The notes under the pieces were generated by a model. That model had not been told where the DNA came from and ran no database searches. It worked only from the letters and a program-made list of their open reading frames with translations. Of a stretch of 64,000 bases of DNA, positions 898-58,921 are shown in pieces; within the stretch, counting starts at the first letter, position 1; every line of letters starts with the position of its first letter. The position numbers and the translations under genes are program-made. Source of the stretch: Bilabrum cf. latius (lineage: Eukaryota); NCBI GenBank assembly GCA_965178125.1, contig OZ237773.1, positions 434,001 through 498,000 on the forward strand. The letters run 5' to 3'.

Positions 898-3800
898 TCA
901 GCGTGCCCGGCTGCCCGAACGAGACCGAGAGCGCCGCCTCGTTCGACGCGACCTCTCCTAGCTAGTAGCATGTCCACCCACCGATGGGCCACCCTGCTGC
1001 ACCTGGCGCTCAGCGGGCACAGGCGCTTGCGCAGCAGCTGCAGAGCTGCTGGCAGCTCCTGATGCACTCGCCGCTCTAGGGACGTCGCCCCTCGGGGGCG
1101 ATTCCCACCGCTTGCGGGGCGGCGCCTCATCCTCCCCCCCTCGATCGCCCCTGCGCTGCCATCTCGGCTGCTTGTCACCCCCCCTCCAGTCTCGGCCCCT
1201 GTCATCACCATCTCTGCGCCAGTCCCTCCCTCGTTCATCTCCACGCGACCAACGCCCCCGATCCGCTCTGTCTCCGCCCCACCGATCTTGCCCCCGGCCT
1301 CGCCCATCCCCTCCCCACCTGTCCCTTCTTTCCCCACCCCTACCCCCCCGCCGCTCCTCCCCCCTGGGAGCGTCCCCCCCGCCCTCTCCCGCCCCCCGCC
1401 GCCTCACCATGAGCGCCTCCTCCCTAGCAGCCTCGATCTCACGCTGCGAACGGCCCTCCTCCCGCCTGCGCTTCGCCTCCAGCGCGGCCCGTCTCGCCCC
1501 GCCGATCTCCTCCCGCACCTCCTTCGCCTCCAGCGCGGCTCGTCTCGCCGCCTCTAGCTCCCTGTCTTCCTCCTCGCCCGCACCCCTCGCCCCATTCGGA
1601 GACGCACTCCTGCTGCGGCCTCTCCTGCCCTCCCTCTCGATCTAGGCGCGCCCCCGCCTCTTGTCCGCGAACAAGTCATCGCCCTGCCCCTCGCCCTTGC
1701 CCTCACCCTCGGCCTCGGCTCGATCATTCTTACCACCCCGAGCCCCATCCTGGCCGTCGGTCACTATGCCACCTCTCTCGGTCCTACCCCGCTTCTTGGG
1801 AGGTGCGCCATCCTACCCTCGCCACGGCCTGCCTCCGGACCTGCCCTTCGACCTCGACCTCGAACTCGACCTCGACCTAGATCTAGATCTAGACCTAGAC
1901 TCTGACGATGACGGAGACCTGCTTCTGCCCCTTCTTCTGCTACCTCCACCATCCCGTGGTGGACTCCTCCTACGCTTGGAACCTGCCACCGGCCTGCCCC
2001 TAGAGTCGCCGTGAGACGCTGATCTTGACCTGGATCTTGACCGCGAGTCAGGTGCTGACCGGGACCTCGATACCGAACCAGACCCAGCAGATCTGGAGCT
2101 GCTTGCAGATCGCCTGCCTGCTTTCCTGCGGGCTCTCGGGCTGCGGCCCCTGCTCCTGCTCCTACTGACACTGCTCCTGCTGCTGGCATCTGTGCTTCGA
2201 CTGTGGCTCCGCGACCTGCTTGAATAGCTCCTGCTCCTGCTCCCGCTCCCACTACTGCTCCTGCTCCGGCTCCCACTACTGCTCCTGCTATCACTGTAGC
2301 TTCTGCTCCTGCTGCGGCCACGTCGCCTCGCTGCTCCCCTGCTACGTGGACTACTCGATCGGGTGCTCCTGCTACCTCTGCTCCTGCTCCTGCTCCTACT
2401 CCTGCGCCTGTTCCTGCTCCTGCCACTGCTCCTGCTGGAGTAGCTCCCCGCGCTTGACCTCGACCCGGATCGCGACCTCGACCGAGAGCTGGAATAGCTA
2501 CCGCTTCGGCTGCTCCTCGTGTAGCTACTTCTGCTGGATCGGCTGCTACGAGACCCGCTGCTCCTGCTGTAGGACCCGCTCCTGCTCCTGCTCCTGCTTC
2601 CGCTTCCGCTTCCGCTTCCGCTTCCGCTCCCACTGCCCGCACTGCCCGACCGCTCCCTGCTCCCACTCCTGCCCCTCCTCTTCCTCGCCGCTTCCTCCCT
2701 GAGCCGGTCTGCCTCGGCCTTCTGCCTGGCGGCCAGGATCTCCGGGAGCTTCAGCAGGTAGGCGCGCATGCCTTCGGTGAGCCAGCCCAGGCCGATCCTC
2801 GTGTAGAAATTGATGGCGAACCGCAGCTGCCTCGGGTGGTCCTTGGGGAACAAGCCGCTGAACGGCTCTCTCATCGACGGGTCCGCCAGCCTCGCCTGCA
2901 GCGTGGCCCTGCCCATGTGCGTGAAGATCTCTTGGAAGACGACCTTGAGGAAGATGCGCTTGCTCGAGTTGGTGCCTTCCTGCGTGAGCTTGACCACTTC
3001 CAGCGCCGTCCAAGGGATGGCGTCCGTGTGCAGGAGGAAAGCGAACAGCTTGGCGACGTTCCTCAGCTGCCTCGTCTCTAGCCTGTGGCAGCCCTCGTAC
3101 TGGTCGCCCAGCGCATCCACGCAGCACTGCTGGTACTCCTCCCCGAGCAGGCAGAACCGCTGTGCCAGCAGGCCATAGAACCTCTGGAATGTTCTCGCCT
3201 GCGCGCTGCTCTCCACGATCATGTTGATGACCTCTCGCTCCAGGCCCGCGCGCAGCCGCAGCTGCATCAGCTTGTGCGCCGCCTCCTCGAAATCCATAGA
3301 GCTCTGGATCGTGAGGAAGATCTTCCTCCGCAGCTGGATCAGCTCGGTATCAGTCAGGTCCGTCACCGCCACGGGCCCCTCCTCCCCCGCGCCACTGCCG
3401 CTGCCGATCGGCACAGTGTCTGACAACCCGGCACCGGCACCGGCACCGGCACTGGCACCGCCGGATGGCCCACCTCCAGCAGACGCCGACGATGACGACG
3501 ATGACCCGTACGTTGCAGCAGCAGCTGCTGCCCCTGCCTCTGCACCTTCTTCCTCTTCGTCCTCATCGCTGTCCGAATCCGATCCACTGCCCGAGGAATC
3601 TGACCCCGAGGACGAATCCGACGAGTCGGACTCCACCTCCTGCCCGAAGATCTCTGCCCGGATGCGCCTCCACAGCGACTCGTTCTCCTCGTACTGATCG
3701 TCCGCTCGGAACACGTCCAGCTCGTCGTGCTTGGCCAGCTTCTGGTCCAGGGTCACTTCGTGCGTGATCTAGTCGTCTGCCTCCACCAGGTCCAGCTCCG

Positions 3801-4980
3801 GCAGCCTCGCCGGGAATCCCTTGAACCCGTCCCTCTGCGCCTCCATGAGCGTCTCCACCGTCACCTGCACGCGCATGTCCAGCCCGCGGCCCGCACCCGC
3901 CCCCGTGCCCCGAAGGATGGCCCGGAACTGGGACATCACGTCCAGGAGGCCCTTGGGGCACTCTTCCTTGAGCAGCTGTCCGCACTCCCGGGTGAAGTGC
4001 ACTGCGATCTCGATCGAGTCGTCCGTGCCCCCCTCCAGCAGCAGGGCCAGCACCTCGAGCGCAAGCAGCTCGTCCGCCACCCTCTGGTTGGCCAGATGCG
4101 CGATGAAGCGAGACAGCGCCATCGCAACCGTCTTGTTGCTGCGCCTGTAGGCTCGCCTGAAGAGCAGCACCACCCTATGGAGCAGAAGCTCGCCGATCTC
4201 CGGCAGCTTGGTGTTGACTACCGCTGCCAGCGCGGCGTAAATATGCGTGAATCCAGGGGAGGCCATCTGCGCTTTCATGAGGGCGCGGACCAGCAGCCCC
4301 CTGCCGCGGACTAGGTTCAGCTGCAGCAGCTGCGGCAAGATGCTGGCCATGTTGGACACGTTGGCTCGGTTCACCAGGCCGTTGATCCCGCGCCGCAGAC
4401 GCTCCCACCGCACCCGCTGCATCGCCTCTGAGCTCTTGGGCAGCTCCGCGGCCATGGCGCGCTCCTACTGCTTGCGCAAATGCGGAGGCAAGTACACCCC
4501 GCCGGCGCGCCGGATTGTGCCGAGACGCGGCCCGTCCGATGCGGCCATCGAGCTTGCCGCGGCAGCACGGCCAGCTCGCTCGGCCGGTTGTGCTCCCGCA
4601 GTTTCACTAGTTGCGACCTTCTCTTGCATCGGAGCAGAAGGGTCAATTGCTTCTGGGGCAACCTCGCCCTCCTCTTTTTCGTCCGCGCTCGACGCGCTCG
4701 CACCCGCAGCCTGCGCCGGTGCAGAGGACTATGTAGCAGGGTTACCGCCGGTCGCAGCCACATCCTTTGTCGCAGCCGCCCTCTTGGCATTGGAATCGCC
4801 AACATCATCCTCATTGTCCGATTCTGTATCTGTAGCAGTCGCATCCGAGTCAGTATCGCTCCCATCGTCCTCCGATCGCGGGATGTCAGGTTGCTACTCA
4901 TCCTATGCTTCATTAGACGAATTGATCTTTGGCGCATCCGCAGCAGAAGTGGGGGGATTAGACTCTTGTTGATCACTCAT
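898..4980 (-). CDS. CWC22: Pre-mRNA splicing factor CWC22 (MIF4G + MA3 domains, long RS-rich tail), ~1360 aa with TAG=Gln
   Basis: Single frame from ATG 4980 to TGA 900-898. Motifs GGVYLPP, WERLRRGINGLVNRAN, NLVRGRGLL, AQMASPGFTHIYAAL, LRRKIFLTIQSSMDFEEAAHKL, RFAINFYTRIGLG. Eight in-frame TAG (4905, 4896, 4731, 4467, 3771, 1815, 1644, 960). LDLVEADD*ITHE matches the conserved EEDQITH. Confidence 0.93.
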
Positions 4981-8316: not shown

Positions 8317-8506
8317 GAGGCTGACGCGCAGGAGGGGCCGTATCTGACCAGCTTGCGCTGCCATTATGGGCACCAGCATGATTTGACAAGTACTGATTCA
8401 TTGGTTTTCCATTGAAGCCAGGTCAATCAATCAGAGCCGCACACACGCTCACAGCTCGCATCACAGCACGCGCCCCCCCCCATCGCACTCATCACACGAG
8501 CCCGCA

Positions 8507-9746
8507 TCATCGGCCCCTGCTCCGGCCACTCGCCCCCCTGGACAGAGCGGCCATGACCCCGCCCCCAGAGCCCCCATACCCTCCCCCCGCGCCGCCACCG
8601 CTGCTCCCCGCCCCCGAAGCAGCCCCGCCCGCCGCCTGGGCCTCCTTGCCCCTGATGGCTGCCACGTGATCCCCGATGCTGTCCGCGACTGCCCCCGCCT
8701 GATCCGCAACGGCACTGGCCATCTGCGCCAGTCGCGCGTGCGGGGACTGCACCGCCGCCCGCATGCGCACCTGCTTGCCCCGGGTGTCGATCCTGGCAGT
8801 GAGCCCCGCCCCCCGCACCAGCTGCACGATCCACCTCTCCGCCTCCTCCTCCTCCACCCTCAGCTCCTCGGCGACCTTCTTGATGTCCACTGTGCTGTGC
8901 AGCTTGCAGTACAGCTGGTACACCTGCTTGCGCGCGCTCTCGAGGAACAAGTCAGACAAAGAGCCCCCGGCCTCCTCGCCCCCCGCCCCGGCCCCCGCCA
9001 CGCTCGACAGGAAAAAGTCCGACGCGATCACCTGCTCGCATGCTTTGAGCGCAGACCGGGCCGCCTCCAGGTCGTGTTCCCTGACCAGCGCCAGGGCGAG
9101 GTCCACCATCGGATCGGAGGAGCGGTCCGCCACGTCATCCAGGAGGCCCAGCAGCCGGGGCCGCTCGTCCTCCAGCTTGCCTAGCGTGACGAGCGCGAAC
9201 ACCACGTACCGCACCAGCCAGGGGCAGTGCATGCGGATCACGTGGTTGTTACTGCGAGGGAAGAGGGAATGGGGAGCAGGCAAGCAGGAGTGTGAGGGGG
9301 CCGCGTATTGGGGCGGTGGCAGACGCATCGGCCGATCGGCTTGGTCGCGCGTTCCATGGCCGTCAGTGCGCTGCACCCTAGTACCACCGTCTGTTTCCTC
9401 ACGCTCTTTCCTCGAGAAACAGCTGCACCAGCATGGCCAGCCCGTCGGTCCCCGACGCATCCGCATGTGCCCCCAGGCAGGGGAAGAGCGCCGCGTGCAG
9501 CATGCTCGCCCGCTGCACGGCCCTGTCAGCCTCGCTGGGGAAGTCGTGCCTGCGGATCTGCTCGGCCAGGGCATCCAGGTCCTGCCGCGCATACTGCACG
9601 GACTTTGTCAGCACCTCGGAGAGGAGCTTGCCCCACAGCGCGGGTACAGCTTCCGGCTCCTCGTCCGCCACCAGCTGGCGGTAGTACACGAGGTAAAACC
9701 CCGAGCACGCGAACCCGTTCATGTCTCCGTCGAGCTCGGGCCCGCA
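8507..9746 (-). pseudogene. 5'-truncated copy of eIF3e (keeps the last intron and 3' flank)
   Basis: Near-identical to 17252-18493 including the intron. Homology stops abruptly near 9746 (CGPELDGD) and the N-terminal exons are absent. Confidence 0.8.
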
Positions 9747-9930
9747 GCGGTCGTTTCTAGCCTTGTAAGCCTTGAGGCGTGCAAATATCGCCGAGTACAC
9801 CGAAAATCTGAGGGTAGGTACGGATTCGAGTCTAAGATCTAACAAAGCAAATCAGACTTGCACTTCTCATTGCCACCCACGGCTCATTTTAAAGTGATAC
9901 AACGGTCGCGTCAGCATCAGACTTGCAAGA

Positions 9931-11610
9931 ATGCGATTTATCGTTTCTTCGCTGGTGGCTCTCGCCGCCTGCTCGACGCTCAGTGTGCGCGGGCGACGAG
10001 CAGCAGGCCAGCAGCACCTTCGCGCTGGCTCTTCTTCGTCGGTCTCGCTCCACGCTCACAGCGGGGGTCATGAGCGCGACGTATGGCCTGCATACGTGTA
10101 CAAAGACAGTCGTGATACGGACTCCTGCGATGTGAGCGCCTTGGCCGCGAGGAAGCCGGCAAAGGGCGACAGACTCCGGAGAGGCGAGATTCTGCATTCT
10201 GCCGTGGGCCCACTCGGTAGCAGCACTCTGTCCAAGGATTCAACGAGTATGTGGCTCCGGGCTGACTGCTACCTGGACGTTTCTGGCAAGTTAAAGACGA
10301 CAATGAAAGTCGAGCGCGAACCAGAGGAGGCCGGCCACTGTGCACTGCTCCTGACGGATGCATCGTGCAGCACGCATGGAGACCTAGCAATCATCGACAC
10401 GGATACGGGCAAGTACCTCTGGCGGGTGGAATCATCTATCTTCACACCCGAGGTGGACACGCTTCTGGTCCAGGGGGATGGCAATGTCGTTCTCACTCAG
10501 GAAGGCGGGGAGGTGCTGTGGTGCACAGATCCCGGAGACTACCCCTTGAAGTCGATGTCGGGGTATTTCCACTTCGATCTGGAGGTGCGGGAGGACGTGC
10601 ACAGTCTGCACTGCGATGCAGGGGCCTTGCAGTCGTCGTACCACCAAGTGGCCGACGGCGACGTGCTGTCTCCGGGGCAGGTGCTGCGCGCTGGGGCCGC
10701 CCTGAAGGCGGGCGAGGAGGAGGGGGTCGAGCTGCACATGCAGGGAGACTGCAACCTGGTGGTGTACCGAGGGGGCAAGGACGTGTTTGCGACCAACACG
10801 AGGGGCAAGGGTACCGAGGGGAAGTGCGCACTCGTCATCACGGGGGACGGGTGCGACACCCAGGGTGACCTGGCCATCGTGGACAGCGCCTCCGGGCAGT
10901 ACATCTGGCGGGTGCCTACCTCGCTGATGGACCCAGGTGCAGATACCCTTCGTCTGCAGGGGGACGGGAATGCCGTCTTGTTCCAGTAGGGAGGTGCGAT
11001 CGCGTGGTCGGCAGGGTCGGCGGACCTGGATAGCCCTGCTGACGACGAGACCTTCGGCAATGGTCGCAAGACGGCGGCGCTGCAGGCGGCCATCGAAGGG
11101 GTGGTGCATCGCTGCGACCCCAAGTCGCTTGCTAAGCGACCTGCCGCCCGGGGGCTCAAGCTGTGGGACTCCGAGGTGCTGGCCATGGGGAAGTAGCTCC
11201 AGTATAACGCACACGGCTACACTAGCACTCTGACGGTGCAGGATGACTGCAACCTGGTGGAGACGAGAGATCACGGAGACATCAACTGGAAGACGGATAC
11301 CCGGAACAAGGCCCAGAAGTGCGCACTCGTCATCACAGGGGAGGAGTGCGACCGCACGGGAGATCTTGCTCTCGTGGACATGGACAGCGGGGCGTACCTG
11401 TGGAGCATCGACACGTCCTACATGTGGCCCACGGCCAAGGTGTTGGTGCTTTCTCGCATGACCACGTCGCTGCAACAGCAGGCTACGCTCGCCGATATCT
11501 GGTGGTCAGATAATTAGGATCCTTTCACGTATTCGCATCCTCCTGAGGGATATCCGCTATCCAAGTTCAGGAAGGCGTTTGCGTACTGGCGCAAGTCCCA
11601 GGACAAGTGA
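9931..11610 (+). CDS. Secreted bulb-type (GNA-like, mannose-binding) lectin-domain protein, copy A, 559 aa
   Basis: Signal-peptide-like N-terminus. Repeated QxDxNxV motifs (VQGDGNVV, MQGDCNLVVY, LQGDGNAV, VQDDCNLV). In-frame TAG at 10987, 11194 and 11515; TGA 11608-11610. Confidence 0.8.
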
Positions 11611-11917
11611 GGGAGGTGTTGTTGTTCAGCAGTTGTGAACGAATACACAGGTGGCATTGCACGCCACCGACCCTGATGTGTGCAATGGCAAGCGTCGGGT
11701 CAGTAGCCGGCGGAAGGAGGCTGCCAGTGACGCGCAGGAGGGGCCGTATTTGGTCTGCTTGCGCCGCCGTTGTGGGCATCAATATGATTTGACAAGTACT
11801 TATTCATTGATTTGCCATTGAATCCAAGTCAATCAATCAGAGCTGCACACACGGATCACAGCTCAGTGCTCGCAGCATGCGGCCCCCCCCCCATCGCACT
11901 CGTCACACGAGCCCGCA

Positions 11918-12371
11918 TCATCGGCCCCTGCTCCGACTACTCGCCCCCCTGGACAGAGCGGCCATGACCCCGCCCCCAGAACCCCCATACCCTCCCCCCG
12001 CACCGCCACCGCTGCTCCCCGCCCCCGAAGCAGCCCCACCCGCCGCCTGGGCCTCCTTCCCCCGGATCGCCGCCACGTGATCCCCGATGCTGTCCGCGAC
12101 TGCCCCCGCCTGATCCGCAACCGCGCTGGCCATCTGCATCAGTCGCGCGTGCGGGGACTGCACCGCCGCCCGCATGCGCACCTGCTTGCCCCTGGTGTCG
12201 ATCCGGGCAGTGAGCCCCGCCCCCCGCACCAGCTGCACGATCCACCTCTCCGCCTCCTCCTCCTCCACCCTCAGCTCCTCGGCAACCTTCTTGATGTCCA
12301 CCGTGCTGTGCAGCTTGCAGTACAGCTGGTACACCTGCTTGCGCGCGCTCTCGAGGAACAAATCAGACAAA
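11918..12371 (-). pseudogene. Second, shorter 3' fragment of eIF3e
   Basis: Matches the eIF3e C-terminal PCI region from SDLFLESARKQ to the stop. Homology ends near 12371. Confidence 0.8.
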
Positions 12372-12699
12372 ACTCCCCGGCGCTAGCGGGGGACGAACTA
12401 TTTGTTCCGCTGCGGTGCGGCGCGACGTTCTCGCCCGCTACGGCCGATTCGTGCGGGCCTGGCAATGTTTTTCCTTTAACACCGTTAAAGACATAGTTTT
12501 GATATGTTACTCTCTATGGTATGTTCATTCGATTGTGGCCGTGTGAGAGGCTGGGTGGCGCTGGTTCGGGCGAAAGGAGCCTCTCAAGCTGGCCCGTCCA
12601 AACGCACTCGCGGCCGTCTGCAGGCCGCCACAGCGGCTGCATCCGCATGTCCGTCAGTGAAGCCTGTTTTTCAATCATATATCTATCACAAGTACCGCA

Positions 12700-14030
12700 G
12701 GGGCACCCCCGGCCGGGCGAAGAAGTGCCGAATTTCGACCCGAACGGGTCCCACCAGTGGCCGCCACCCCGCTGCGGCCCTGGCAGGCCGCGCCAGGCCG
12801 TCGCTCCCGCGGCCCCCAGAGCCGACAGGGCGCTCAGATGCCTTCTTCTGGGTCTTACAGCCAGGGAGGCCTCTTCCCTCAGATCGTGTCGAGCGCCTCG
12901 AGCTGCTTGCTGGCCAACACAGCCGCCGCCCCCCTGGCCGCCCGAGGCGCGTCCTCTCCCTCGGCATCGATCTGCGCCTCGAAATCGGGAATTTCCTCGC
13001 CCATCGAATCGGGGGCGACATCGCCGCCTTATACTGCGTCCATCATCGCGGCAGCCGCGCCCTTTGCATCCTCGTCGCCCGCCACGGCGGCCGCCGCGCC
13101 CCCCTCGTCCTCGTCCTCGTCGCTCCCGTAGTGGATCCACCCCCGGTCCTCCGCCATGGCTCTCGCAAACGTCTCTTGGTAGTCCATTCCCTTTTGCGTG
13201 GGCAGCTTCCTTCAGCTCGATCTGCGAGAGGCCGGTGCTGGGCGTCGGACCGCTTCGAGGCGTCCGCCAGGCCGTCCTCGTACTCGTCCTCGCTGGACCC
13301 ACCCCCTGCCTCGCCCTCCACGGCAAGCACCTCCCGCCGCCTTCGAGTTCCGCTCCTGACCCTCCCCTTTCTCGCCCTGCCTCTGCCCACCCCCCCCCAC
13401 CCCCCCCCGTCTGCCCCTTGCTGGTGCCGTCCGAGGCAGAGTTCAGTTGCGAGCAGATCTGATTGCGACTGCGGCTGCTGCAGTGCCACTGCAGCCGTGC
13501 CTGCTCTGCCCCCGCTCCCTCTTCCGATGGTGGTGCGGGCCATCTGCAGCCACTTGCTGACAGTGGTGTCGACCCGCCCCCGCCACGAGGCCCGCGCCTC
13601 CTCCTGTTGCAATGCAAGCTCTCCGGTATGCAGCCCGTCGTCACATTTAGCCAGCAGCGCGGGCAGTAGGAATACCAGCCGCACCATGCCCTCGAGGCGA
13701 CAGGCCTGCATCAGCAGGCCCACCACCTCGGTGCCCGCCAGATCCCGCCGGAGACCTGACATGCGGCGCGCGTCCTCGTCCGCCTCCCCCTCCTCCACAG
13801 CCCCTTCATCCTCGCCCCCCTCCCCTCCCCCGCCTCCTCGCCCCCACCCCCGCCCCCCTCCTCGTCTCCGTCCGTACCGCCGCGCCCCCCGCCTCGCCCA
13901 CTCTCGGCTACAGACAGGTAGTCCGAGGCCGCCGTCCAGCGCGCGGCGTGCTCCTGCCGCACGGCATCCATGAGGGCCCCAAGCAGCACGTCCTTGGGGT
14001 CCGCTGACCACGTCAGGGGGGGGGGGGGTG
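12700..14030 (-). pseudogene. Degenerate coding-like remnant of an unknown gene
   Basis: Protein-like segments switch between frames, and the most protein-like distal frame contains TAA (13031-13029) and TGA, which are not seen inside intact genes here. Boundaries are approximate. Confidence 0.4.
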
Positions 14031-15268
14031 GCCGTCGTCCGCCCCGCCGTAGGCACTTTTACCCGGAGTCTTTACGGCCGCAGTCGAAGCAGACCCGGCA
14101 GACAAAGCAGGCGCGGAAGGAGCAGAGACCCCCATCTCTGTCGCCTGCCCCGCCTTAGAGCCATGCCATGAGTCCTTTCACTCTGGGTCAGATATCCCGA
14201 GTTCCAGTGATGTTGTACTCGTACAAGCCAAGGGCAACCAGACAGGCCGCCAGCACGCCGAGCGCGGAGGCCCCCGTCCCGGGTGTGCCTGCGCTCTCAT
14301 ACCCCAAGCTCTCCTCTAAAGAATAATATTTCTGCGTCGTACACGATGGTAGGAAAATGGGCTGCACGCATCGCCGCAAAACGGAGGAAAGTGGGAAACC
14401 GCGCGATTCGAGCCCATAAAAAGGCTCTGACTTGCATCGACGATTGCAAAAAAGTATCATCTCCAATATCAGCGAAACACGGCCAATCTCTTTGAAACTT
14501 CAAGAACAAAGTGATGGTCCCGGCAAAACAATCGCCCCACCAAGACACGCCGAGCGCAGTGCAAACATGCACGGCCCCGAACCCCAAAAACTAACGACCT
14601 TGCGGTAGCGGCAATGGCTTCCGAGTGAAACATCACCACAGATGCGGTCCAAAAAGGATAAAACTAATATCTTACACCAATCAATGGCGGAATTTTCACC
14701 ATGGACCAAGATTGTGCTGCGCTAGAGGCGCTGGCAGATGTGCGCTTGCGCTCGGTTGCAATCTCCATTCAATCCGGGGGGGCTACGCGAGATCTGCGCG
14801 AGACAGACAACAATAGCCCTTAGACAATTAATTACGGCAAAATCCAAAATATGGGAGAGATTTTTTTTCTTCTAAAAATGCCTGAAGCCTGAGAAAAGTG
14901 GGCGGCAAGCCGACGACAGGAAACGGCCTAAATCACTAAGACCCGGCAAGCGGCTTACACTTGAAGCTTCAGCGGGCGCAGGCACGACGATCGGATTTTC
15001 ATATCATACAGACTCATGTTTACCGCAAGAGAATCACCATAAACCAATCGTAGTTGGAGCTCGAGTGCCGCAAAGTTTCAGATGCTCGACCGGGTCCGCC
15101 AAATTAGGTTCCGCTACTAGCGCGCCGCGCGCGGCGATAAACTACGCGTAACTATCTGAGTACTAAATCATATTTGTGCACGCGTCTCCCCGACTCGCAT
15201 ACCTCCTTGCCGCCCACTGCGTCATCGCAAAGTGATACAACGGTCGCGTCAGCATCAGACTTGCAAAA

Positions 15269-16948
15269 ATGCGGTCAATCGTTTCTACGCTGATGGCTCT
15301 CGCCGCCTGCTCGACGCTCAGTGTTTACGGGCGACGAGCAGCAGGCCAGCAGCACCTTCGCGCTGGCTCTTTTTCGTCGGTCTCGCTCCACGCTGAGAGC
15401 GGGAGTTATGAGCGCGATTGGGCTTCATTTCTGAACAAAGACAAACTCGACACGTTCTCCTGCGATGTGAGCGCCTTGGCCGCAAGGAAGCCGGCAAAGG
15501 GCGACAGGCTCCGGAAAGGCGAGATTCTGCATTCTGCCGTGGGCCCACTCGGTAGCAGCACTCTGTCCAAGGATTCAACGAGTATGTGGCTCCGGGCTGA
15601 CTGCTACCTGGACGTTTCTGGCAAGTTAGAGACGGAAATGATAGTCGAGCGCAAGCCAGAGGAGGCCGGCCACTGTGCGCTGCTCCTGACGGATGCGTCG
15701 TGCAGCACGCATGGAGACCTGGCCATCATCGACACGGATACGGGCAAGTACCTCTGGCGGGTGGAATCCTCTATCTTCACACCCGAGGTGGACACGTTCC
15801 TGGTCTAGGGGGACGGCAACGCGGTTCTCCTTCAGGAAGGCGCGCAGCTGCTGTGGAGCACCAGGAACTATATGCACAACGATTACAAAAATCCCAAGGG
15901 GGGGTATTTCCACTTCGATCTGGAGGTGCGGGAGAACGTGCACAGTCTGCACTGCGATGCAGGGGCCTTGCAGTCGTCGTACCACCAAGTGACCGACGGC
16001 GACGTGCTGTCTCCGAAGCAGGTACTGCGCGCCGAGGCCGCCCTGAAGGCGGGCGAGGGGGAGGGCGTCGAGCTGCGCATGCAGGGAGACTGCAACCTGG
16101 TGGTGTACCGAGGGGGCAAGGCGGTGTTTGCGACCAACACGGCGGGCAAGGGTACTGAGGGGAAGTGCGCGCTCATCATCACAGGGGACGGGTGCAACAC
16201 CCAGGGCGACCTGGCCATCGTGGACAGCGCCTCCGGGCAGTACATCTGGCGGGTGCCTGCCTCGCTGATGGACCCGGGTGCAGATACCCTTCGTCTGCAG
16301 GGGGATGGGAATGCCGTCCTGTTCCAGCAGGGGGGTGCTATCGCGTGGTCGGCGGGGTCGGCGGACCTGGACAGTCCTGACGACGACGAGACCTTCGGCA
16401 ATGGTCGCAAGACGGTGGCGCTGCAGGCGGCCATCAATGGGTGGTCTCCTCGCTGCGACCCCCAGGCGCTTGCTAAGCGACCTGCCGCCCGGAGGAACCA
16501 GCTGTGGGACTCCGAGGTGCTGGCCATGGGGAAGTAGCTCCAGTATAACGCACACGGCTACAGGAGCACTCTGACGGTGCAGGATGACTGCAACCTGGTG
16601 GAGACGAGAGGTGACGAAAACATCATCTGGAAGTCAGATACCCGGAACAAGGCCCAGAAGTGTGCACTCGTCATCACGGGGGAGGAGTGCGACCGCGCGG
16701 GAGATCTTGCTCTCGTGGACATGGACAGCGGGGCATACCTGTGGAGCATCGACACGTCCTACATGTGGCCCACGGCCAAGATGCTGGAGCTAGACGACGT
16801 GTCTCTATCGCTGCATCAGCAGGCTACGCTCGCCGATATCTGGAAGTCGTATAAACATGACATGTTCAGTTCGAATACTCATGAGGGACATCCACAAGAA
16901 AGGTTCGAGGAGGCGTTTGCGTATTGGGGCAAGTCCCAGGATAAGTGA
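15269..16948 (+). CDS. Secreted bulb-type lectin-domain protein, copy B, 559 aa
   Basis: Paralogue of 9931-11610 with the same length. In-frame TAG at 15806 (the Q of a QGDGN motif) and 16535; TGA 16946-16948. Confidence 0.8.
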
Positions 16949-17251
16949 GGGGGGTGTTGATGTTCGGCTGTCGTGAACAAAAGCACAAGTGGCATTGCAC
17001 GCCATCGACGCTGATGTGTGCTATGGCAAGCGTCGGGTCAGTAGCCGGCGGAAGGAGGCTGCCAGTGACGCGCAGGAGGGGCCGTATCTGACCAGCTTGC
17101 GCTGCCATTATGGGCACCAGCATGATTTGACAAGTACTGATTCATTGGTTTTCCATTGAAGCCAGGTCAATCAATCAGAGCCGTTCACATGAATACAGCT
17201 CGCATCACAGCACGCGGCCCCCCCCCATCGCACTCGTCACACGAGCCCGCA

Positions 17252-19208
17252 TCATCGGCCCCTGCTCCGACTACTCGCCCCCCTGGACAGAGCGGCCATG
17301 ACCCCGCCCCCAGAACCCCCATACCCTCCCCCCGCGCCGCCACCGCTGCTCTCCGCCCCCGAAGCAGCCCCGCCCGCCGCCTGGGCCTCCTTGCCCCTGA
17401 TGGCTGCCACGTGATCCCCGATGCTGTCCGCGACTGCCCCCGCCTGATCCGCAACGGCACTGGCCATCTGCGCCAGTCGCGCGTGCGGGGACTGCACCGC
17501 CGCCCGCATGCGCACCTGCTTGCCCCGGGTGTCGATCCGGGCAGTGAGCCCCGCCCCCCGCACCAGCTGCACGATCCACCTCTCCGCCTCCTCCTCCTCC
17601 ACCCTCAGCTCCTCGGCGACCTTCTTGATGTCCACCGTGCTGTGCAGCTTGCAGTACAGCTGGTACACCTGCTTGCGCGCGCTCTCGAGGAACAAGTCAG
17701 ACAAAGAGCCCCCTGCCCCCTCGCCCCCCGCCCCGGCCCCCGCCACGCTCGACAGGAAAAAGTCCGACGCGATCACCTGCTCGCATGCTTTGAGCGCAGA
17801 CCGGGCCGCCTCCAGGTCGTGTTCCCTGACCAGCGCCAGGGCGAGGTCCACCATCGGATCGGAGGAGCGGTCCGCCACGTCATCCAGGAGGCCCAGCAGC
17901 CGGGGCCGCTCGTCCTCCAGCTTGCCTAGCGTGACGAGCGCGAACACCACGTACCGCACCAGCCAGGGGCAGTGCATGCGGATCACGTGGTTGTTTCTGC
18001 GAGGGAAGAGGGAATGGGGAGCGGGCAAGCAGGAGTGTGAGGGGGCCGCATATATTGGGGTGGTGGCAGACACGTCGGCCGATCGGCTGGGTCGCGCGTT
18101 CCATGGCCGTCAGTGCGCTGCACCCTAGTACCACCGTCTGTTTCCTCACGCTCGTTCCTCGAGAAACAGCTGCACCAGCATGGCCAGCCCGTCGGTCCCC
18201 AACGCATCCGCATCTGCCCCCAGGCAGGGGAAGAGCGCCGCGTGCAGCATGCTGGCCCGCTGCATCGCCCTGTCCGCCTCGCTGGGGAAATCGTGCCTGC
18301 GGATCTGCTCGGCCAGGGCATCCAGGTCCTGCCGCGCATACTGCACGGACTTTGTCAGCACCTCGGAGAGGAGCTTGCCCCACAGCGCGGGCACAGCCTC
18401 CGGTTCCTCGTCCGCCACCAGCTGCCGGTAGTACACGAGGTAAAACCCCGAGCACGCGAACCCGTTCATGTCTCCGTCGAGCTCGGGCCCGCACTCGAAC
18501 ACGAATCGAGCCAGCTGGGAGAAGGCTTCGATTTCGTCCTCCGTGACACCCTCGTGCTCCAGCAGCTGCTGCCTGGTGAACGTTCCTTCCTGGAAGAGCT
18601 CCAGAGCCCGCTGGCTCGGCTGCAGGCTGCCTGTGTCGGGGTCCACCAGCTTCAGCAGGGCCCCGGAGCGCTCGCACAGGTCGTTATATGCCTTCTTCAT
18701 TGATTCCTGGCTGCCATACTCGCCTTCCTTTGGGGCTGCGCCGTGGAGCTCCTCGTGCATGGCTGCGCACAGAGCAGGTCGGCGGATCCTCGAGGCCAGC
18801 TTCAGCCTCGATCGGAGCAAGCTATCTCTATCATATACCTGCAGGCACAAGGATTGGAACACGAGATTGGGTTGCAAGAGTCGTGCAGTGTTGGCTCTTA
18901 AAAAGCTACACCTCGATCGCGTTCGAGCTCGCCTCACGCTGTTTTCCTGCACCCATCTCAACATATCAAGGAGAAGAACGGGTTCCATGAATTTGGACAT
19001 ACTCATGACCGGATCGAATTCTGTATTGGACGAGAGGACAGCAAATACACAGAAAATTGACAGGTAGAGACACACAGTTCTTGCAGCCGCACCATTCAAG
19101 CGTATCGGGCGTCCGTGCTGCCTCACCGGCTGAAGGAGTCATGTCTGTCCAAGTACCCTTCGCATCACTAGGTGCAGAACTACCAGATCCGCTCGTTGCA
19201 GCAGACAT
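17252..19208 (-). CDS. EIF3E: Eukaryotic translation initiation factor 3 subunit E (divergent), full-length copy
   Basis: Four exons (introns 19126-19021, 18937-18839, 18149-17997). Motifs ALWGKLLSEVL, QRASMLHAALF, CPWLVRY, CEQVIASDFFL, YCKLHSTVDI, EAERWIVQLVR..ARID. No in-frame TAG. Confidence 0.85.
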
Positions 19209-19331: not shown

Positions 19332-20552
19332 ATGCGCAGTGCAATAACAACAAGAAATTTGCACCGCAGCTTGTATTTAAAGCTAGCACATAGGCAAGGA
19401 CAGCGTTGCGTCTCGGTATGGGTTTCTCCGAAGGATGAGTGTGTACCAAAAGGTTCGTTTTGTGAGGATCACGTGGCTATCCACCATGATAAGCCACCAG
19501 GGGATGGTAATGCGAATGCTGGCGAAAGGAACAGGTTTGACATCGTTAAGCTGGGAGCCTTCGTGTTTCGGGGGCTGGTGCCAGACGAGGTCTCGAGCGC
19601 GGCCAGTGAGCACGCAATCAACACGATGTCTCGCCGCCGGTACGAAGGCGGGCACTGGGATGGAGTGATCCACGGGTACAAAGAGACCAAGTCGAGCCTG
19701 AAGGCCCTTATTGGAACTCCCATGGCCCACGCACTCCCCGCTCTGCGCGAGATCCAGCCACCGCGCAGCATCCGCCGCATGCAGCCCCAGGCACACGTGC
19801 TGCAGCTCGCCCGGTACGGCCGCATCGACGGCCACGTGGACGCGGTGAAGTTCTGCGGACACACTGTGGCGGGGGTGTGCCTGGGATCGGACGCCGTCAT
19901 GCGCCTGGAGCTGGACGAGTCCACGATCCTCGACACATCACCTGAACGGAAGGGGGCGCTGCTGCCCCTCGGGTGGGAGTACTCGCTGGACGAGGAGGGG
20001 GCGCTGGGGGCGCTGGGTGGGGACACGGGTGCAGCGCATGGCGGTGCAGGACCCAGCTGGGAGGACCTCGCCCCCGGGGCCCGGGACATCGCTCTGTCCA
20101 TGCTCCGATCTATGCCTCCCACGATCGACCTGCTGCTGCCCGCAGGCGGGGGCTACTGCCTCGCGGGCCCCGCCCGGTTTGCCTACAAGCACTCCATTCT
20201 GGAGGACCCAGAGCCAGTAGCTGGCTGTGGGGCAGAAGCACGCGCAGCAGGTGCAGGTGCATCGCAGGGTGGTGCCGCCTAGTCCCCGCTGGGGTGGGAC
20301 TGGGACGTGGGGCGCCCTTTAGACCTGGAGCCGGCTGGGTGCACGGTGGTGGACACGGTGTTTGGGGAGTCGAGGGCGGTGAAACGTGAGAGGAGGAGGA
20401 AAGGGGTCGATGCGGAGGCAAAGGGGGTCGAAGAGGCAGGGGCCCATGGATGGCCAGCCCTCGGTGATCGTCACACCCGCGTGTCACTCATCGTGCGAGA
20501 TGCTCCGCTTGATGAGCTCTCGGGCGAGCCGGGGCCCAACCGGAGGAGATAA
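19332..20552 (+). CDS. 2OG-Fe(II) dioxygenase, AlkB family (ALKBH7-like)
   Basis: Motifs RYEGGHWDGVIHGYKE, IDGHVDAVKFCG (HxD), ARFAYKHSIL. The C-terminal RVSLIVRD motif lies after in-frame TAG 20280-20282. Ends TAA 20550-20552. Start is uncertain. Confidence 0.82.
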
Positions 20553-27572: not shown

Positions 27573-29879
27573 ATGGAGGCTATTTCTAACGTCGGTCTAT
27601 GCGACGATCTGATTTTAGCAAGGGCGCTAGCGACAGTACGTCTCACGTGAGTCTTTGCCGGAGCAGAATTATGGAGCTTCAGCGTTCGACCGGATCCATC
27701 ACCTCTAGGCTGTTTCGTCCCTACGCCCTAACGCAGGCTGGCTTCCATGAAGAGAAGCGGCAGAACCATTGGTGATGTGTGGGAGTCGACCGTGGACCAG
27801 CAGGAGGCCAAGATAGCCGTGGTCTTCCACCGCAGCCAGTACTCCTTCCGTGCGCTCGACGCAGGGGCCAACCGCATCGCGACTTGGGCTGTCCGTGAAA
27901 TGAGGCTGCAGCGAGGAGATACTGCGTGCTTGATGATGTCAAATAGGCCCGAATTTCTCATGACGTGGCTGGGCCTGTGCAAGATCGGGGTGGGTGTGGC
28001 TTTCATCAACACCAATCAGACCGGCAAGGTTCTCCGGCACAGCCTTAAGCTCGCCACTGGGCGGGTCATCATCCACGACGAGGCCATGCGTCCGGCACTT
28101 GACGACATTGACGATTCCATCCGCGCGATGGGCATGCAGAGGGCCCTGTTGGGCGGCCCACTCCAGCTGTATCGCACCGAAGCAGCCGAGGTCACGTCAG
28201 ACGTGGCCTACCTCGCCAAGCCGCAGGACGCTCCCACCACCGGCATCGTGGGATCGGGCCGCAACGCGTTCTTCGTGGCGCCGGCGAGGCCTCACCCCAG
28301 GGACAGGGCCAGGGCTGCGGGAGAGGGCGGGGACAGTTCCGGCTCCGGATCCGCCTTCTCCCCGGCCGTGGACCCCAGCCCCTACCGGCGCCCGGTGGAG
28401 ATCGACGTGCTGCGGGGCATCGCGGCGTGTCCCGACGCGCGCCCGTCCAGGGTATTGCGTGAGGGGCTGCAGCTGGAGGACAGGTTCGCGCTGGTGTACA
28501 CCTCTGGTACGACGGGCCTGCCCAAGGCGGCTGTCATCACGCACGGGCGGATGTTCAACGCCGGGTGTCTGTTCTCCACAGTGTACGGGGTCCGCAGCAC
28601 GGACAGGATCTACACCGTGCTGCCTCTGTACCACTCCGCGGGCGGCCTGGTGGGCTCTGGCATGATGCTGTACATGGGAGCCACCATGGTCATGCGGGAG
28701 AAGTTCTCCGCCACGAGCTTCTGGTCCGACTGCTGCGAGCACAGGTGCACTGTCGTGCAGTACATCGGCGAGCTGTGCAGGTACCTGCTGCTGGCCAAGC
28801 CGCACCCGCTGGAGAGAAGGCACAGCGTGAGGCTGGCTGTGGGGAACGGTCTTCGGCCGGACGTGTGGGGGCCGTTCCAGGACAGGTTCGGCATACCGGA
28901 GGTGGGGGAGTTCTATGCATCCACGGAGGGGAACGCGGCTCTCTTCAACTGGTGCAGGGACAGGAGGGCGCGGGGGGCCGTGGGCCGGATGGGGGCGGTC
29001 TCGAGGTCGCTGGGCATCATGCCCCTGGTCAAGTTCGACGAGGAGACCGAGGAACCGGTCAGGGGGCCCGACGGCAGGTGCGTGAGGTGCGGGCCGGGGG
29101 AGCCTGGGGAGCTGCTGGGGCTGATTGCCGCCGGTGACCCCACTCGGGAGTTTAAGGGGTACCTGGGGAACAAAGAGGGGACGGCCAAGAAGATCCTGAG
29201 GGGGGTGTTCAGGCCAGGGGACTCGTACTTTCGGACGGGGGACCTGCTGAAGAGGGATGAGGCTGGGTATTTTTACTTTCTGGACAGGATCGGGGACACG
29301 TTCCGGTGGAAGGGGGAGAACGTGGCGACGACAGAGGTGGCGGAGGCGTTCGCGGGCGTCCAGGGGCTCGCGGAGGCGATCGTGTACGGGGTGCTGGTGC
29401 CGGGGCACGACGGCAGGGCGGGCATGGCCTCTCTGGTGCTGGACGCGCCTGCACCCAGGGAGGGGGGCAAGGGGGCCGGGGGCAAGCCGCGGGCATGGAC
29501 GCACGCAGAGGTGGAGCGCGTGCTTGACATGAAGGCCCTCTCCGATGTGCTCAGGAAGAGGCTGCCGGCCTATGCCGTGCCTGCCTTCCTGAGGGTGCTG
29601 CCTGCCGCACCCACCACGGGGACGTTCAAGCACCAGAAAGTGGCCCTCCGAAAACAGGGGTATGACGAGTGCGGGGGTGACCCCGTGTACCGGATGCGGG
29701 GGGCAGTGGAGAGGCTCCAGCCGGGGGAGACTCCGGGGTTCGAGAGAATGATCCCAAGTGGGGGGCAGGGGCCAGCCAAGGGAGGGGCAGGGACCGGCAA
29801 GGCAACTGCCACAGCTGCGTCTGGGACAGGGAGTGGGATGGTGGCAAAGACGGGCGCCTTCTCTGTGGCCAAATTGTGA
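27573..29879 (+). CDS. Very-long-chain acyl-CoA synthetase / fatty acid transport protein (FATP, SLC27 family)
   Basis: AMP-binding motif YTSGTTGLPKAA, EFYASTEGN, and the FATP signature GDSYFRTGDLL..YFYFLDRIGDTFRWKGENVATTEV. First exon 27573-27646, intron 27647-27736 with a CTAAC branch point. Confidence 0.93.
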
Positions 29880-33522: not shown

Positions 33523-33568
<46 letters not shown>

Positions 33569-34399
33569 GGTCAAAGCGGCCGATAGGTCGTTGTGCTGAG
33601 CTGCGCCCCTGCATCCTCGCCCGCCTTTTCCACCCCGGGGGCTCCCCAGTTCCTGGACGAGGAGGGGTACTACCTGGGGAAGGCCCCTCTGGTGAGCAGG
33701 CCGGGGAGGGGCAGGAACGTGGCGGCGAGCTCCATGCTCTTCGGGGCCGAGCAGCTGCTCGAGTCCGTTGGTCGCAAATCGACAGGACCCGACCGGAGGG
33801 CACTGCTGCCGTGCCTGGTGCAGGGCACTGCAGTGTCTCTGGCAGCGCAAGAGGGGCGGGCGCTCACAATGCGGCGAGCGAGCGACGTCGGCACCCGTGT
33901 TAGTCTGCTGGTGGCGAGTGTGTTCGGGGTCGACGGGCCGGGGATGCCTGGGCTGCGTGCCTCGTGTGCTGCTTGGCTCGCGGGGCACATGGACAGCGAG
34001 AGCGGAGGCTAGGCTGGATGTGACGGCGGGGAGGTTGTGGGAGCTGCGGGCATTCAAAGTGTGTCCGAGCCAGGGACTGGACTCGGTGTGACGAGCGTTG
34101 ATCACGGAGCCGGCGGCAGTGGCCCATGGCGTGAATGGCTCCTGAGGAACAAGACGGCGGCTTGGCTCGGGGTTATGGGTGTGATGAGTGCGGTCAACCA
34201 GGGGTTGTCGTGGCAAGTGGTCAATCACGTGGGGCAGGGGGGCAGCCTGCCTGGGCTGCCACTCGACTGGGAGGCGCTGTGGGATGCGGGGGCTGGCGCC
34301 TCGGCACCTGGAAATGGGGCCGCGGGTGATCGGTCCGAAGGACAAGGGGGGGCAATCGAAAGTGCTGGTGCAAGCAAGAGGAGGAGGGTGTCTTCCTGA
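31238..34399 (+). CDS. WD40-like repeat protein with acidic insertions, ~1050 aa
   Basis: Seven track ORFs share one frame and are joined across 10 TAG codons with no TAA or TGA until 34397. WD-like segments VFCADVHP..LVLAGYEKG and AHERAVTAVTF..SADLFGMIKLWDV. Start is uncertain. Confidence 0.7.
32501..32695 (+). repeat. 21-bp coding minisatellite, ~9 units, encoding (A/V)GDLEG(S/G)
   Basis: Repeated GYAGGGGACCTCGAGGGGRGT units. Confidence 0.93.
33524..33565 (+). repeat. (AGC)14 microsatellite encoding poly-Ser
   Basis: Read directly; in frame with the WD40-like gene. Confidence 0.9.
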
Positions 34400-54958: not shown

Positions 54959-57900
54959 ATGAGCGGTTCCTTTGTGGATTTATTGAGCTTGGTTGCTCCA
55001 CTGCAACTGCGAGACCGACACACCGATGATTTCGAACCAGGAGCCTCAATCGTAACACTTGAGCAGCTGGATCGTGTCGACTAGTAGCTATCGCATGTAT
55101 GCTCCAGAGATTGCGATTGGCATGCAGGGGACGTGATGCTAGCGATGCCGGTGCCATCAGCCGTGTTGGCTGGTGTGGCCATCCTGCACCCCAGGACCCG
55201 ACCGCGCGTTGAATTGCCCGACCATCGCTCAACCTCACTTCAAACATCCGTGTGGGCGCGTCCCCCCGAATCCATGCGGTTGTCTAGCGCTGGCATGCTC
55301 CGAATGGCATCTTCCTCCCAGGTTCGTCCAGCTACTGCCATCGATGTGGAGCTGTGGGCCGGACAGAGGGAGCACCAGCGGGCCGATGCGCCTGCTCAGT
55401 ATTCACGAGTGCCATAGCTGGAGCGCCGCATCGCATGGACGGCTCTCCGGATGCTGCTGCTGGACCTGGTCCTGTGTCCCGGCTGCCTCGTGGCCCTCCC
55501 CTCCTCGCTGCTCAAGCGGGTGTGTCCGCGGCTGGAAGGTCTGCACATGGGCAGGACAGACGAGATTTAGTAGAGTGCTGGAGGTTCGAATGGGGCTGGT
55601 GGTGCCCGCGTGTTCGTTCGGGTCACTGGCGCCTCTCCGGGGCAGTCGAGGGGGGCAGGAGGCGGGATGGGGATGGTGAGGGTAGGGCGGGACACTTCGG
55701 TGCTGTACACTAATAGGAGCGCTGGGGGGGTTCATGCAGAGGGTGGTGAAAGAGGCAGCACCACCACATCATCATCATCATCACTATCGTTGTTGTTAGC
55801 ACAGGCTCCTCCTTCCATGTCCCGGGCCTGGGACCCGATGGCTCCATCGACTGCCGTGGTGGGGCTGGCAGAGCCCTTGGCCCGTATGCGGGCGCTGGCA
55901 ATGGGTCCGCTGATGTGGGGCCGCAGATTGTTGCCACCACACTTGCTCCGAGGTAGACCACAGCACGTACCGTCTTGCACTGCACTTGTATCTGGGCCTG
56001 CGGGGAGTGGGAAATCGGCTCTTATCCGAGCCATCGCGAATGAGGCATGGGCGCTTGGAATTGCTGTGCGACTCGTGACGGTGCAGTGCGCTGCACTCAT
56101 GGGAGGCCGCATCGGGCAGGCTGAGACTGCCCTGACCCGGGCCTGCAAACGGGCTGCAGCGTTCCTGGAACACTGTGGGACTGGAGGGGCGGGCGCTGGA
56201 GCCGAGGCAGCACCGGTGGTGGTAGGGGGTGACACCAGTGGAGCGGGCGGGAATGCAAGGGATAGGGAGGATGTGACAGGAGGGTGGTGGCCCCTGGGTG
56301 CCAGCGTGCCCACTCGTCACGATCGAGGAGGGTCAGGCTCAGGGTCAGGCTCAGGGTTTGCCTGGGTGCATGCCGCATTCCCGTCAGACGGTGTGGTGGT
56401 GGAGGACTTGGTGCCTAATTTGCATGGGGTGGGTCAGAAGCAGGGGCAAGGGTAGTCTCCAGTGGATGGCCCGAGGCTGTCCATGCTGGTGCTGGAGGGC
56501 ATCGATGCGATCGCTCCCACCGGGCTGGGCAGCTGCCTGGCAGCAGTGGACTCCCCCCAGGCAGCGGCAGCCAGGGCCAGCGTAAGGCTGGTGCAGCTGC
56601 TGCGGGGTGCCAAGGCAATGGCGCGCATGCACCACCGTGAGAGTGTTGGGGCGGTTGGGAGCAGGCAGGGGGAAATGAAGGCCATGGCCGAGGAGACGCT
56701 GGATCGACTGCTGGCTGCTGCCCACGGTATTCCCGACGGAGGTGTGACGAGTGCGGCCAGTGGTCGACCTTCTCCCGGTCAAGGGTCGCCAATGTCCGTG
56801 TTTGCGGGCCTGGATCCTGCCGGAGACGCGGCTGCAGATCCAGTGGGGCGGTGGGAGCACCTGCAAGAGGAGGGCAGTGCCTGGCAGCAACCAGCGGAGG
56901 AGGGCAGTCGTGGCATGGACGGTAGGAGAGGGGCCGAGGCAGAGGATGCATCGGGTGAATGCGACGAGTGGGCCTCACAGCAACTGAGACACATGGCGGT
57001 ATTTGCCACAGCCCGTGGAGCACAGGAAGTGGCACCACTGCTGCGCGGGCAGGAGGGGCTGGAGGAGGCCGTGGAGCTGCCCGCCATGGGCCCGGACGAG
57101 AGAGCAGAGGCCCTCGTGGTGTTTGTAAAGAGGGGTTGCGTGCGGGGGAGTCGGGGTGGGGGAGGAGGAGATGGAGATGGGGGTGATACTATGCCTCCCG
57201 GTCTCGAGGCGTGGCTCCGATCGTTTGCGGCCTCGCTGTCGGGGTACAGCGCGGCGGAGCTGAAGGCCCTCGCCGCTGCTGCCCTCAGGAGACACCAGGG
57301 GGGAGAGAATCCGAGAGAGGGGGCTGGCGGGGGGGCTGGCGGGGGGGCTGGAGGGGGGGCTGGAGGGGGGGCTGGAGGGGGGGCTGGCGGGGGGGCTGGT
57401 CGAGGAGAAGAACAAGAAGCCGATGGTCCACACCGCGGTGTAGAAGGCGAGAGCGAGAACGACGGCGAGAACGAGGGTGAGGAAGGGAGCTGGCTTGACT
57501 TGCTGGATGAGGCCGGGCCAGTGGCAGCGGGCGGTGACACCGACCTGCCTGCAGGAGCTGGACACGTAGATGATGCAACAGGTCCTGCATCTCTTTGGCC
57601 AAGCCGGGACGCATTTGAGACGGCCGCCGCGCACGACGTGCGCCCCGCAGGCGTGTCGGCGTTGGGGCGTGGGGTATCGGCCGTGTCCTGGTCCTAGGTG
57701 GGCGGCGTGCGCGGGCTTAAAGAGGCCGTGCAGAGGGCGATCGAGTGGCCCGTGCGGCACCGGGGCATCTTTAAGCTGCTTGGGCAGAGTCCACCCCGCG
57801 GGGTGCTGCTGTTTGGGCCTCCAGGCTGCTCCAAGACTCTGCTGGTGCGGGCTGCGGCGCAATCGGCCCGCGTGCCATTCTTCTCTCTGTCCGGCGCCGA

Positions 57901-58842: not shown

Positions 58843-58921
58843 CGAGGCCGCAGCACCATCCGGCTCGTGGGCAGCTGTTGCCCGAGGCGATCCTGGAGAT
58901 GGAACAGACCCCTGGGCATGA
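54959..58921 (+). CDS. Double-AAA ATPase, CDC48/AFG2(SPATA5)-like, with degenerate first AAA module, ~1320 aa
   Basis: D1 GPAGSGKS..LVLEGID; D2 VSWS*VGG, GVLLFGPPGCSKT, LFFDEVD, AATNRPELLDAALLRPGRLD. The GCSKT Walker A resembles AFG2/SPATA5. Seven in-frame TAG. Confidence 0.8.

Follow-up and report, generated by a model that had tools for sequence, protein, structure and literature searches.

In the stretch of DNA studied here, UAG is very probably read as glutamine in cytoplasmic translation, with TGA as the usual stop codon and TAA as an apparently rare one. The stretch, hereafter the window, comprises 64,000 nucleotides (nt) of contig OZ237773.1 (positions 434,001 to 498,000, forward strand) in the assembly GCA_965178125.1 of Bilabrum cf. 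latius, and the coordinates given below count from its first letter. It carries two neighbouring lectin genes, copies A and B, in which TAG and CAG stand in place of each other reciprocally. Glutamine is also supported, independently of this paralogue pair, by alignment columns of the CWC22-like gene of the window, of a CWC22 gene on a metagenome contig (L001) and of remote lectin homologues. The assignment of TAG to glutamine is a rare but already known type of genetic-code change.

The lectin genes, the codons in question and the duplicated segments to which they belong are as follows:
9931..11610, + strand: coding sequence of lectin copy A, from ATG 9931 to TGA 11608-11610 (559 codons plus TGA)
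15269..16948, + strand: coding sequence of lectin copy B, from ATG 15269 to TGA 16946-16948 (559 codons plus TGA)
10987, 11194 and 11515, + strand: in-frame TAGs of copy A, from its reading frame
15806 and 16535, + strand: in-frame TAGs of copy B, from its reading frame
10471..10473, + strand: CAG, codon 181 of copy A, the Q of a 'VQGDGN' subsite; its partner is TAG 15806-15808 of copy B
15806..15808, + strand: TAG, codon 180 of copy B, placed on the motif glutamine by the codon alignment and by remote homologues
10987..10989, + strand: TAG, codon 353 of copy A; its partner is CAG 16328-16330 of copy B
16328..16330, + strand: CAG, codon 354 of copy B, partner of TAG 10987
11194..11196 (copy A) and 16535..16537 (copy B), + strand: TAG common to both copies in the codon alignment
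11515..11517, + strand: third TAG of copy A, which pairs with CAT 16856 in a poorly aligned, divergent C-terminal tail
9866..12371, no strand assigned: duplicated segment with copy A, matching 15203-17705 at 90.4% identity
15203..17705, no strand assigned: duplicated segment with copy B, matching 9866-12371 at 90.4% identity

A codon alignment of the two copies, proposed in an earlier sequence-only reading of this DNA, recovers both reciprocal TAG/CAG pairs and the shared TAG at all the coordinates given there, and each copy is indeed 1680 nt long and ends at a homologous TGA. The TAG sites listed in that reading are correct; the third TAG of copy A (11515) had been missed. Of 557 aligned codons, 425 are identical between the copies, insertions and deletions all comprise whole codons, and there are no frameshifts. 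The two genes are best explained as intact, recently duplicated paralogues with a synonymous divergence (dS) of ~0.16, and the TAG at 11194/16535 may be either older than the duplication or homogenised with it. If TAG is a synonym of CAG, glutamine codons would be free to drift by C-to-T and T-to-C transitions, and such drift would yield reciprocal TAG/CAG differences as well as a shared TAG in the lectins.

The pattern in the lectin pair exceeds chance. In frame 1, the copies together have five internal stop triplets, every one a TAG, and frames 2 and 3 contain 41 TGA or TAA and 8 TAG; four independent in-frame events would all be TAG with a probability of ~7e-4. After the first TAG of copy B, 379 codons follow without TGA or TAA (P ~1e-3), and after that of copy A, 206 codons (P ~0.023). 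The ratio of nonsynonymous to synonymous divergence between the copies (dN/dS, Nei-Gojobori) is 0.57 before and 0.64 after the first TAG of copy B, so constraint does not drop past the TAGs; the ratio for codons 354-560 is 0.70. An excess of synonymous changes is found over the whole length (p = 0.0065) and over codons 181-560, past the first TAG of copy B (p = 0.019), and is not significant in codons 354-560 alone (p = 0.14).

Taken on their own, the lectin swaps are thin evidence, consisting in two single-transition events; TAG/CAG differences number two in the pair, versus no CAA/CAG difference. The sequence-only reading had held that TAG behaves as a synonymous variant of CAG and thereby identifies glutamine without any database. 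The first part holds up, through the CWC22 gene, the L001 contig, the remote-lectin column and the amino-acid likelihood described below. The second is overstated, because there are only these two events, because the overall dN/dS is 0.63 and because the coding sequence is conserved no better than the 3' flank. A better internal argument from the paralogue pair is that one TAG occupies the Q position of a motif for which all nine other copies with Q, both genes counted, use CAG.

The lectins are surrounded by genes in which the same codon recurs. By its predicted gene content the window is eukaryotic nuclear DNA, and it is best explained as gene-dense, GC-rich eukaryote DNA (63% GC). Pfam matches were obtained for CWC22 (MIF4G and MA3 domains), a POT transporter, an AFG2/CDC48-like AAA ATPase, an AMP-binding enzyme, bZIP, ATP10, PCI, RNA ligase, Tfb4 and PITH. 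With TAG taken as glutamine, 46 open reading frames (ORFs) starting with ATG have at least 300 residues. Eighteen of these were kept as lying on the likely coding strand, and the other 28 were left out because they either lacked support or overlapped kept ones, on the opposite strand or in a different frame. The 18 long ORFs (14,017 codons) contain 54 in-frame TAG, 382 CAG and 82 CAA, and 15 of them carry at least one TAG. To lessen the circularity of ORFs that had been defined with TAG read through, a codon model was trained only on the codons upstream of the first TAG of each gene, leaving one gene out at a time, and the 50 codons after each TAG were then scored; 49 TAGs could be scored, five being too near the ends of ORFs. 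The stretch after the TAG scores as coding in 45 of the 49, in comparison to 7 of 18 after terminal stops (Mann-Whitney p = 4.6e-7), and after each lectin TAG the scores range from 0.24 to 0.35. For CWC22, the POT transporter and the AAA ATPase, alignments to solved structures pass through TAG in one frame.

The identity of the amino acid is best seen in the CWC22-like splicing-factor gene:
898..4980, - strand: CWC22-like gene (MIF4G and MA3) with eight in-frame TAGs, from Pfam and homologue alignment
3769-3771, - strand: TAG, codon 404 of this gene, in a column with Gln in 119 of 120 homologues

These columns are taken from the best 120 of 1046 homologues. Codon 404 is also opposite Q in both of the alignments to solved structures that were shown, and an L001 TAG at the position of codon 299 of the window gene falls in a column with Q in 95 of the 120. 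In lectin copy B, the column of TAG 15806 has Q in 18 of 21 remote lectin segments and is followed by x-D-G-N, each of whose three named residues occurs in 20 of the 21 segments. Two lectin TAG columns show no preference among the remote segments, where the column of the shared TAG is variable. TAG is also the closing codon of a poly-Q run in bZIP and of a GQ repeat in the AAA ATPase. The log-likelihood for TAG, summed over 10 informative columns that include one with Asp, is -28.3 for Q, -48.6 for R and -50.6 for E.

L001 has 57% GC and its CWC22 is 74% identical to that of the window in the core. The L001 gene contains six in-frame TAGs and neither TAA nor TGA in its coding part, so that a second organism, as judged from this contig, shares the in-frame TAG trait. 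Over 688 aligned codons the two genes have 11 TAG sites. Five of these lie in the conserved core; each is opposite CAG or CAA in the other gene, and none of the five is common to both; TAG/CAG changes number five versus three of CAA/CAG.

The lectins themselves show how one of these TAGs lies within a folded domain. Both copies match Pfam B_lectin (PF01453) above the cut-off of 32.4 bits (copy A 36.4 bits, copy B 37.1 bits), and each consists of three internal repeats of ~125 residues apiece; they are triple beta-prism II proteins, with subsites of the types QGDCNLVVY, QGDLAIVD and QGDGNAVL. The carbohydrate-binding subsite motif of GNA-like lectins is QxDxNxVxY; 'QGDCNLVVY' fits it exactly in both copies, 'QGDGNxVL' and 'QDDCNLVE' come close, and the remaining subsites are degenerate. 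A model of domain 2 of copy A, for which the six repeats were aligned with eight remote hits from the database, spans TAG 10987 with a predicted local distance difference test (pLDDT) score of 91.4. In a Foldseek search of the PDB it matches the mannose-binding lectins of Gastrodia, snowdrop and garlic (E = 5e-9; target-normalised template modelling score 0.72-0.87). TAG 10987 encodes a residue in the turn ahead of the last beta-prism strand, and the fold therefore requires translation through this TAG. A single-sequence model of the whole lectin was unusable (pLDDT 35).

The protein search with the lectins returned eight remote hits only, with no close relative and no fragment of near length; the closest relatives in the database show 25-33% identity over 24-54% of the query. 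The window lectins resemble GNA-like lectins (the bulb-type, monocot mannose-binding lectins) in the PF01453 match, the exact QxDxNxVxY-type subsite and the beta-prism II fold, and differ from them in having three tandem domains in one chain of 559 residues and several degenerate subsites. Mannose binding is a predicted family trait only, and a hydrophobic N-terminus suggests that the proteins are probably secreted.

Termination relies mainly on TGA. Among the 18 long ORFs, 17 terminate with TGA and a single one with TAA:
19332..20552, + strand: the sole long ORF of the 18 that ends in TAA; readthrough would add ~370 codons and enter the bZIP gene in antisense

In-frame TAA is absent from all 14,017 codons of the 18 ORFs, and ~11.6 would be expected if TAA were to CAA as TAG is to CAG (P ~9e-6). 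Within frames bounded by TGA only, TAAs are found ahead of starts, in antisense frames or within stretches of low GC content at third codon positions, and no in-frame TAA with a coding signal on both sides was found in the supported genes of the window. Additional ORFs chosen by codon score mostly end in TGA; one unsupported ORF of 119 codons ends in TAA. In the ORFs at 898, 27747-29879, 8507, 20906 and 15269-16948, the terminal TGA is followed, at once or after a few codons, by another in-frame TGA, and such repeated TGAs fit reliance on TGA for termination. From one window and one clear TAA-ended gene, the code looks like one in which UAG alone has become glutamine and TGA is the main stop.

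Several observations weigh against reading UAG as glutamine. The ORFs were defined with TAG read through, which makes the stop-codon counts partly circular, and four of the 49 post-TAG stretches score as non-coding. No tRNA gene was found in the window (ARAGORN 0 genes; Rfam 0 matches). Of the 11 TAG sites in the comparison with L001, six pair with non-Gln codons, in N-terminal or low-complexity parts, two of them just upstream of the core. In the lectins, the dN/dS of 0.63 is weak and the 3' flank is 87-95% identical, the coding sequence being conserved no better; the column of the shared TAG (11194/16535) is I or V in the other internal repeats. TAG codon 212 of the POT transporter is opposite Met in the three alignments to solved structures shown, and the TAGs of the RNA ligase are opposite Gly and His in one weak hit; as to which amino acid TAG encodes, the structure alignments of these two proteins proved uninformative. 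The clearest single conflict is in the AAA ATPase:
57695..57697, + strand: TAG of the AAA ATPase gene in an Asp column, in conflict with Gln

It lies on the Asp of a conserved 'W-x-D-I-G-G' stretch, where Asp is found in 224 of 235 segments and Gln in none.

One rival explanation is NCBI table 6, the code of ciliates, dasycladacean green algae and hexamitid diplomonads, under which UAA and UAG both encode glutamine and only UGA stops translation; in-frame TAA would then be missing only through GC richness. The window resembles this code in having UAG as Gln and TGA as the dominant stop (17 of 18 ORFs), a second in-frame TGA often follows the terminal one, and TAA ends just the one long ORF and the unsupported short one. 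It departs from the code in lacking in-frame TAA where about 11.6 were expected and in having one ORF apparently stopped by TAA; reading through TAA 20550 would enter the bZIP gene antisense for ~370 codons. In the coding part of the L001 gene, TAG is in frame six times and TAA not at all. We regard table 6 as unlikely, and still as the most serious competitor of a UAG-only change. Less probable again is that TAG encodes another amino acid, such as Glu or Leu, both of which it specifies in some other lineages, or that it has a dual, context-dependent role as sense and stop codon. Asp or Glu in the AAA column, one CWC22 column with E in 48 and Q in 27 and the E found in repeat 1 at the column of lectin TAG 10987 would fit another amino acid, and a dual role would fit three TAGs within 26 codons of ORF ends as well as the four non-coding post-TAG stretches. 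Against this, the log-likelihood of Q exceeds that of R by 20 and that of E by 22 units, and the three columns dominated by Q (119/120, 95/120 and 18/21) contain neither E nor L.

That both lectin copies are untranscribed pseudogenes drifting neutrally past their first TAG, the condition under which the sequence-only reading would have failed, is very improbable. The high dN/dS (0.63, and 0.70 in codons 354-560, where the synonymous excess has p = 0.14) and a coding sequence conserved no more than its flanks are what it would predict. It is disfavoured by the synonymous excess over longer spans, by frames free of TGA and TAA for 379 (copy B) and 206 (copy A) codons past the first TAGs, by the restriction of indels to whole codons without frameshifts, and by coding scores of the same range after every lectin TAG. 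Moreover, the best Pfam lectin stretch (residues 431-516) lies past the first and second TAG in copy A and past both in copy B, the confident beta-prism model needs residues on either side of TAG 10987, and in-frame TAGs are the rule in the essential genes of the window. A standard code combined with site-specific U-to-C editing, which would convert UAG to CAG in the mRNA, predicts the same equivalence of TAG and CAG at the DNA level, and we give it similarly little credence. TAG sites turn over fast, with none of the five core sites common to the window and L001 and two TAG differences between lectin paralogues at a dS of only ~0.16, and a general decoding rule would fit such turnover better than 54 separately recognised editing sites. 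The least probable reading of all, to which we attach almost no weight, is that the TAGs are the 3' ends of short in-frame introns. The window does contain a spliceosome gene, and in an AT-rich CWC22 homologue on an unrelated metagenome contig (L007) each 'in-frame TAG' lies inside a short insertion relative to homologues; the informative TAGs of the window and L001, however, stand in conserved motifs free of gaps ('DD[TAG]ITHE', 'V[TAG]GDGN'), with no insertion.

If UAG is glutamine here, it would be decoded by a tRNA-Gln with anticodon CUA, derived from tRNA-Gln(CUG), and eRF1 would have lost recognition of UAG.

Some further features of the window and of the contigs compared with it deserve mention. 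The lectin duplication (9866-12371/15203-17705) is flanked by another repeat, present in three copies and carrying a PCI-domain gene (8322-9746, 11728-12381 and 17066-18493). The PCI-domain gene is itself found at 8507-9592 and 17252-17977 (both - strand), duplicated with the flanking repeat at 97.4% identity; its second copy differs from the first by a 2-nt insertion close to the site that corresponds to window position 9308, and the N-terminal part of the first ORF (8507-9592) is unlike protein, possibly owing to an intron or to a shorter gene. Seven public sequencing runs were found to carry this DNA, none of them recorded as RNA. In four of the public runs, the summed contig depth over the conserved lectin segments 10453-11456 and 15473-16727 is many times that of the flanks, and many of the contigs can be placed at two sites, which is a hint of a larger lectin family and not a copy number. 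The short contigs from these four runs list no difference at the TAG sites.

The ORF at 31238-34399 has the largest number of in-frame TAGs in the window (10) and contains a repeat with a 21-nt period at 32500-32696 that encodes heptads of the 'GDLEGSA' type. Three tandem TAG-TAG pairs occur among the 54 TAGs (55082-55087, 55568-55573 and 35358-35363); the last of them lies six codons ahead of the TGA of an RSN1-like ORF, where it might in principle serve as a genuine stop. At and past the 3' end of the AAA ORF there is a perfect (100%) tandem repeat with a 57-nt period and ~10 copies (58870-59444). On L001, a short tandem repeat with units like 'GPWAVGRG' (L001:1-120) lies upstream of the CWC22 gene. 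The CWC22 homologue at L007:1388-3280 (31% GC) was considered as a code change and rejected, since its TAGs are all in short insertions relative to homologues; they are most likely the ends of short introns, and the case is a caution for code screens.

Nuclear reassignment of stop codons is rare, and different meanings for UAG and UAA are rarer, according to PMC5304391 and PMC11687900. UAG alone is glutamine in the nuclear code of Iotanema spirale (PMC5304391) and in the phyllopharyngean ciliates Hartmannula sinica and Trochilia petrani (PMC11687900), and a code with TAG as Gln is numbered 'genetic code 15' in PMC9523058. The window is similar to these three organisms in that UAG is a sense codon, best read as Gln, and UAA is not; it differs in that TGA ends 17 of 18 ORFs in 63% GC DNA, whereas UAA is their primary or preferred stop (PMC5304391, PMC11687900). 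Hexamitins are mentioned in connection with UAA and UAG as glutamine in PMC5304391. Amoebophrya sp. ex Karlodinium veneficum, as described in PMC12005148, is AT-rich and has all three stops in frame (58% UAA, 32.3% UAG and 9.7% UGA). It shares with the window a protist nuclear genome in which in-frame UAG is thought to be Gln (PMC12005148), and differs from it in that only TAG is in frame in the window. No GC-rich or stramenopile-like lineage with UAG as Gln, nor a GC-rich case that terminates mainly at UGA, was found in the literature, the coverage of which was incomplete, so that a description of the organism may already exist.

With respect to affiliation, the best named CWC22 hits are from oomycetes and other stramenopiles, and in a CWC22 tree, which is a quick tree only, the window and L001 stand alone on a long branch (2.06). 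Gene content and this tree suggest no placement with ciliates or fornicates. The AAA search returned mainly archaeal CDC48 and gave no lineage signal. TGTAA is the poly(A) signal of chlorophytes; no enrichment of TGTAA was found downstream of the window genes, and therefore there is no chlorophyte-like poly(A) signal. We tentatively suggest, as a possibility somewhat short of an even chance, that the window and L001 represent an undescribed, deep-branching, GC-rich lineage in which UAG alone is glutamine, UAA is a rare stop and UGA provides nearly all termination.

Annotation of this genome under the standard code would truncate a large share of its genes, since 15 of the 18 long ORFs contain TAG. 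Comparing paralogues can usefully hint at a code change with no recourse to a database, but more than two events are needed. If the proposed lineage is real, it would be a further independent case in which the meanings of UAG and UAA are decoupled, and the first in a GC-rich, UGA-terminating genome; as such, it would add a data point on the roles of mutation pressure and release-factor specificity in changes of the genetic code.

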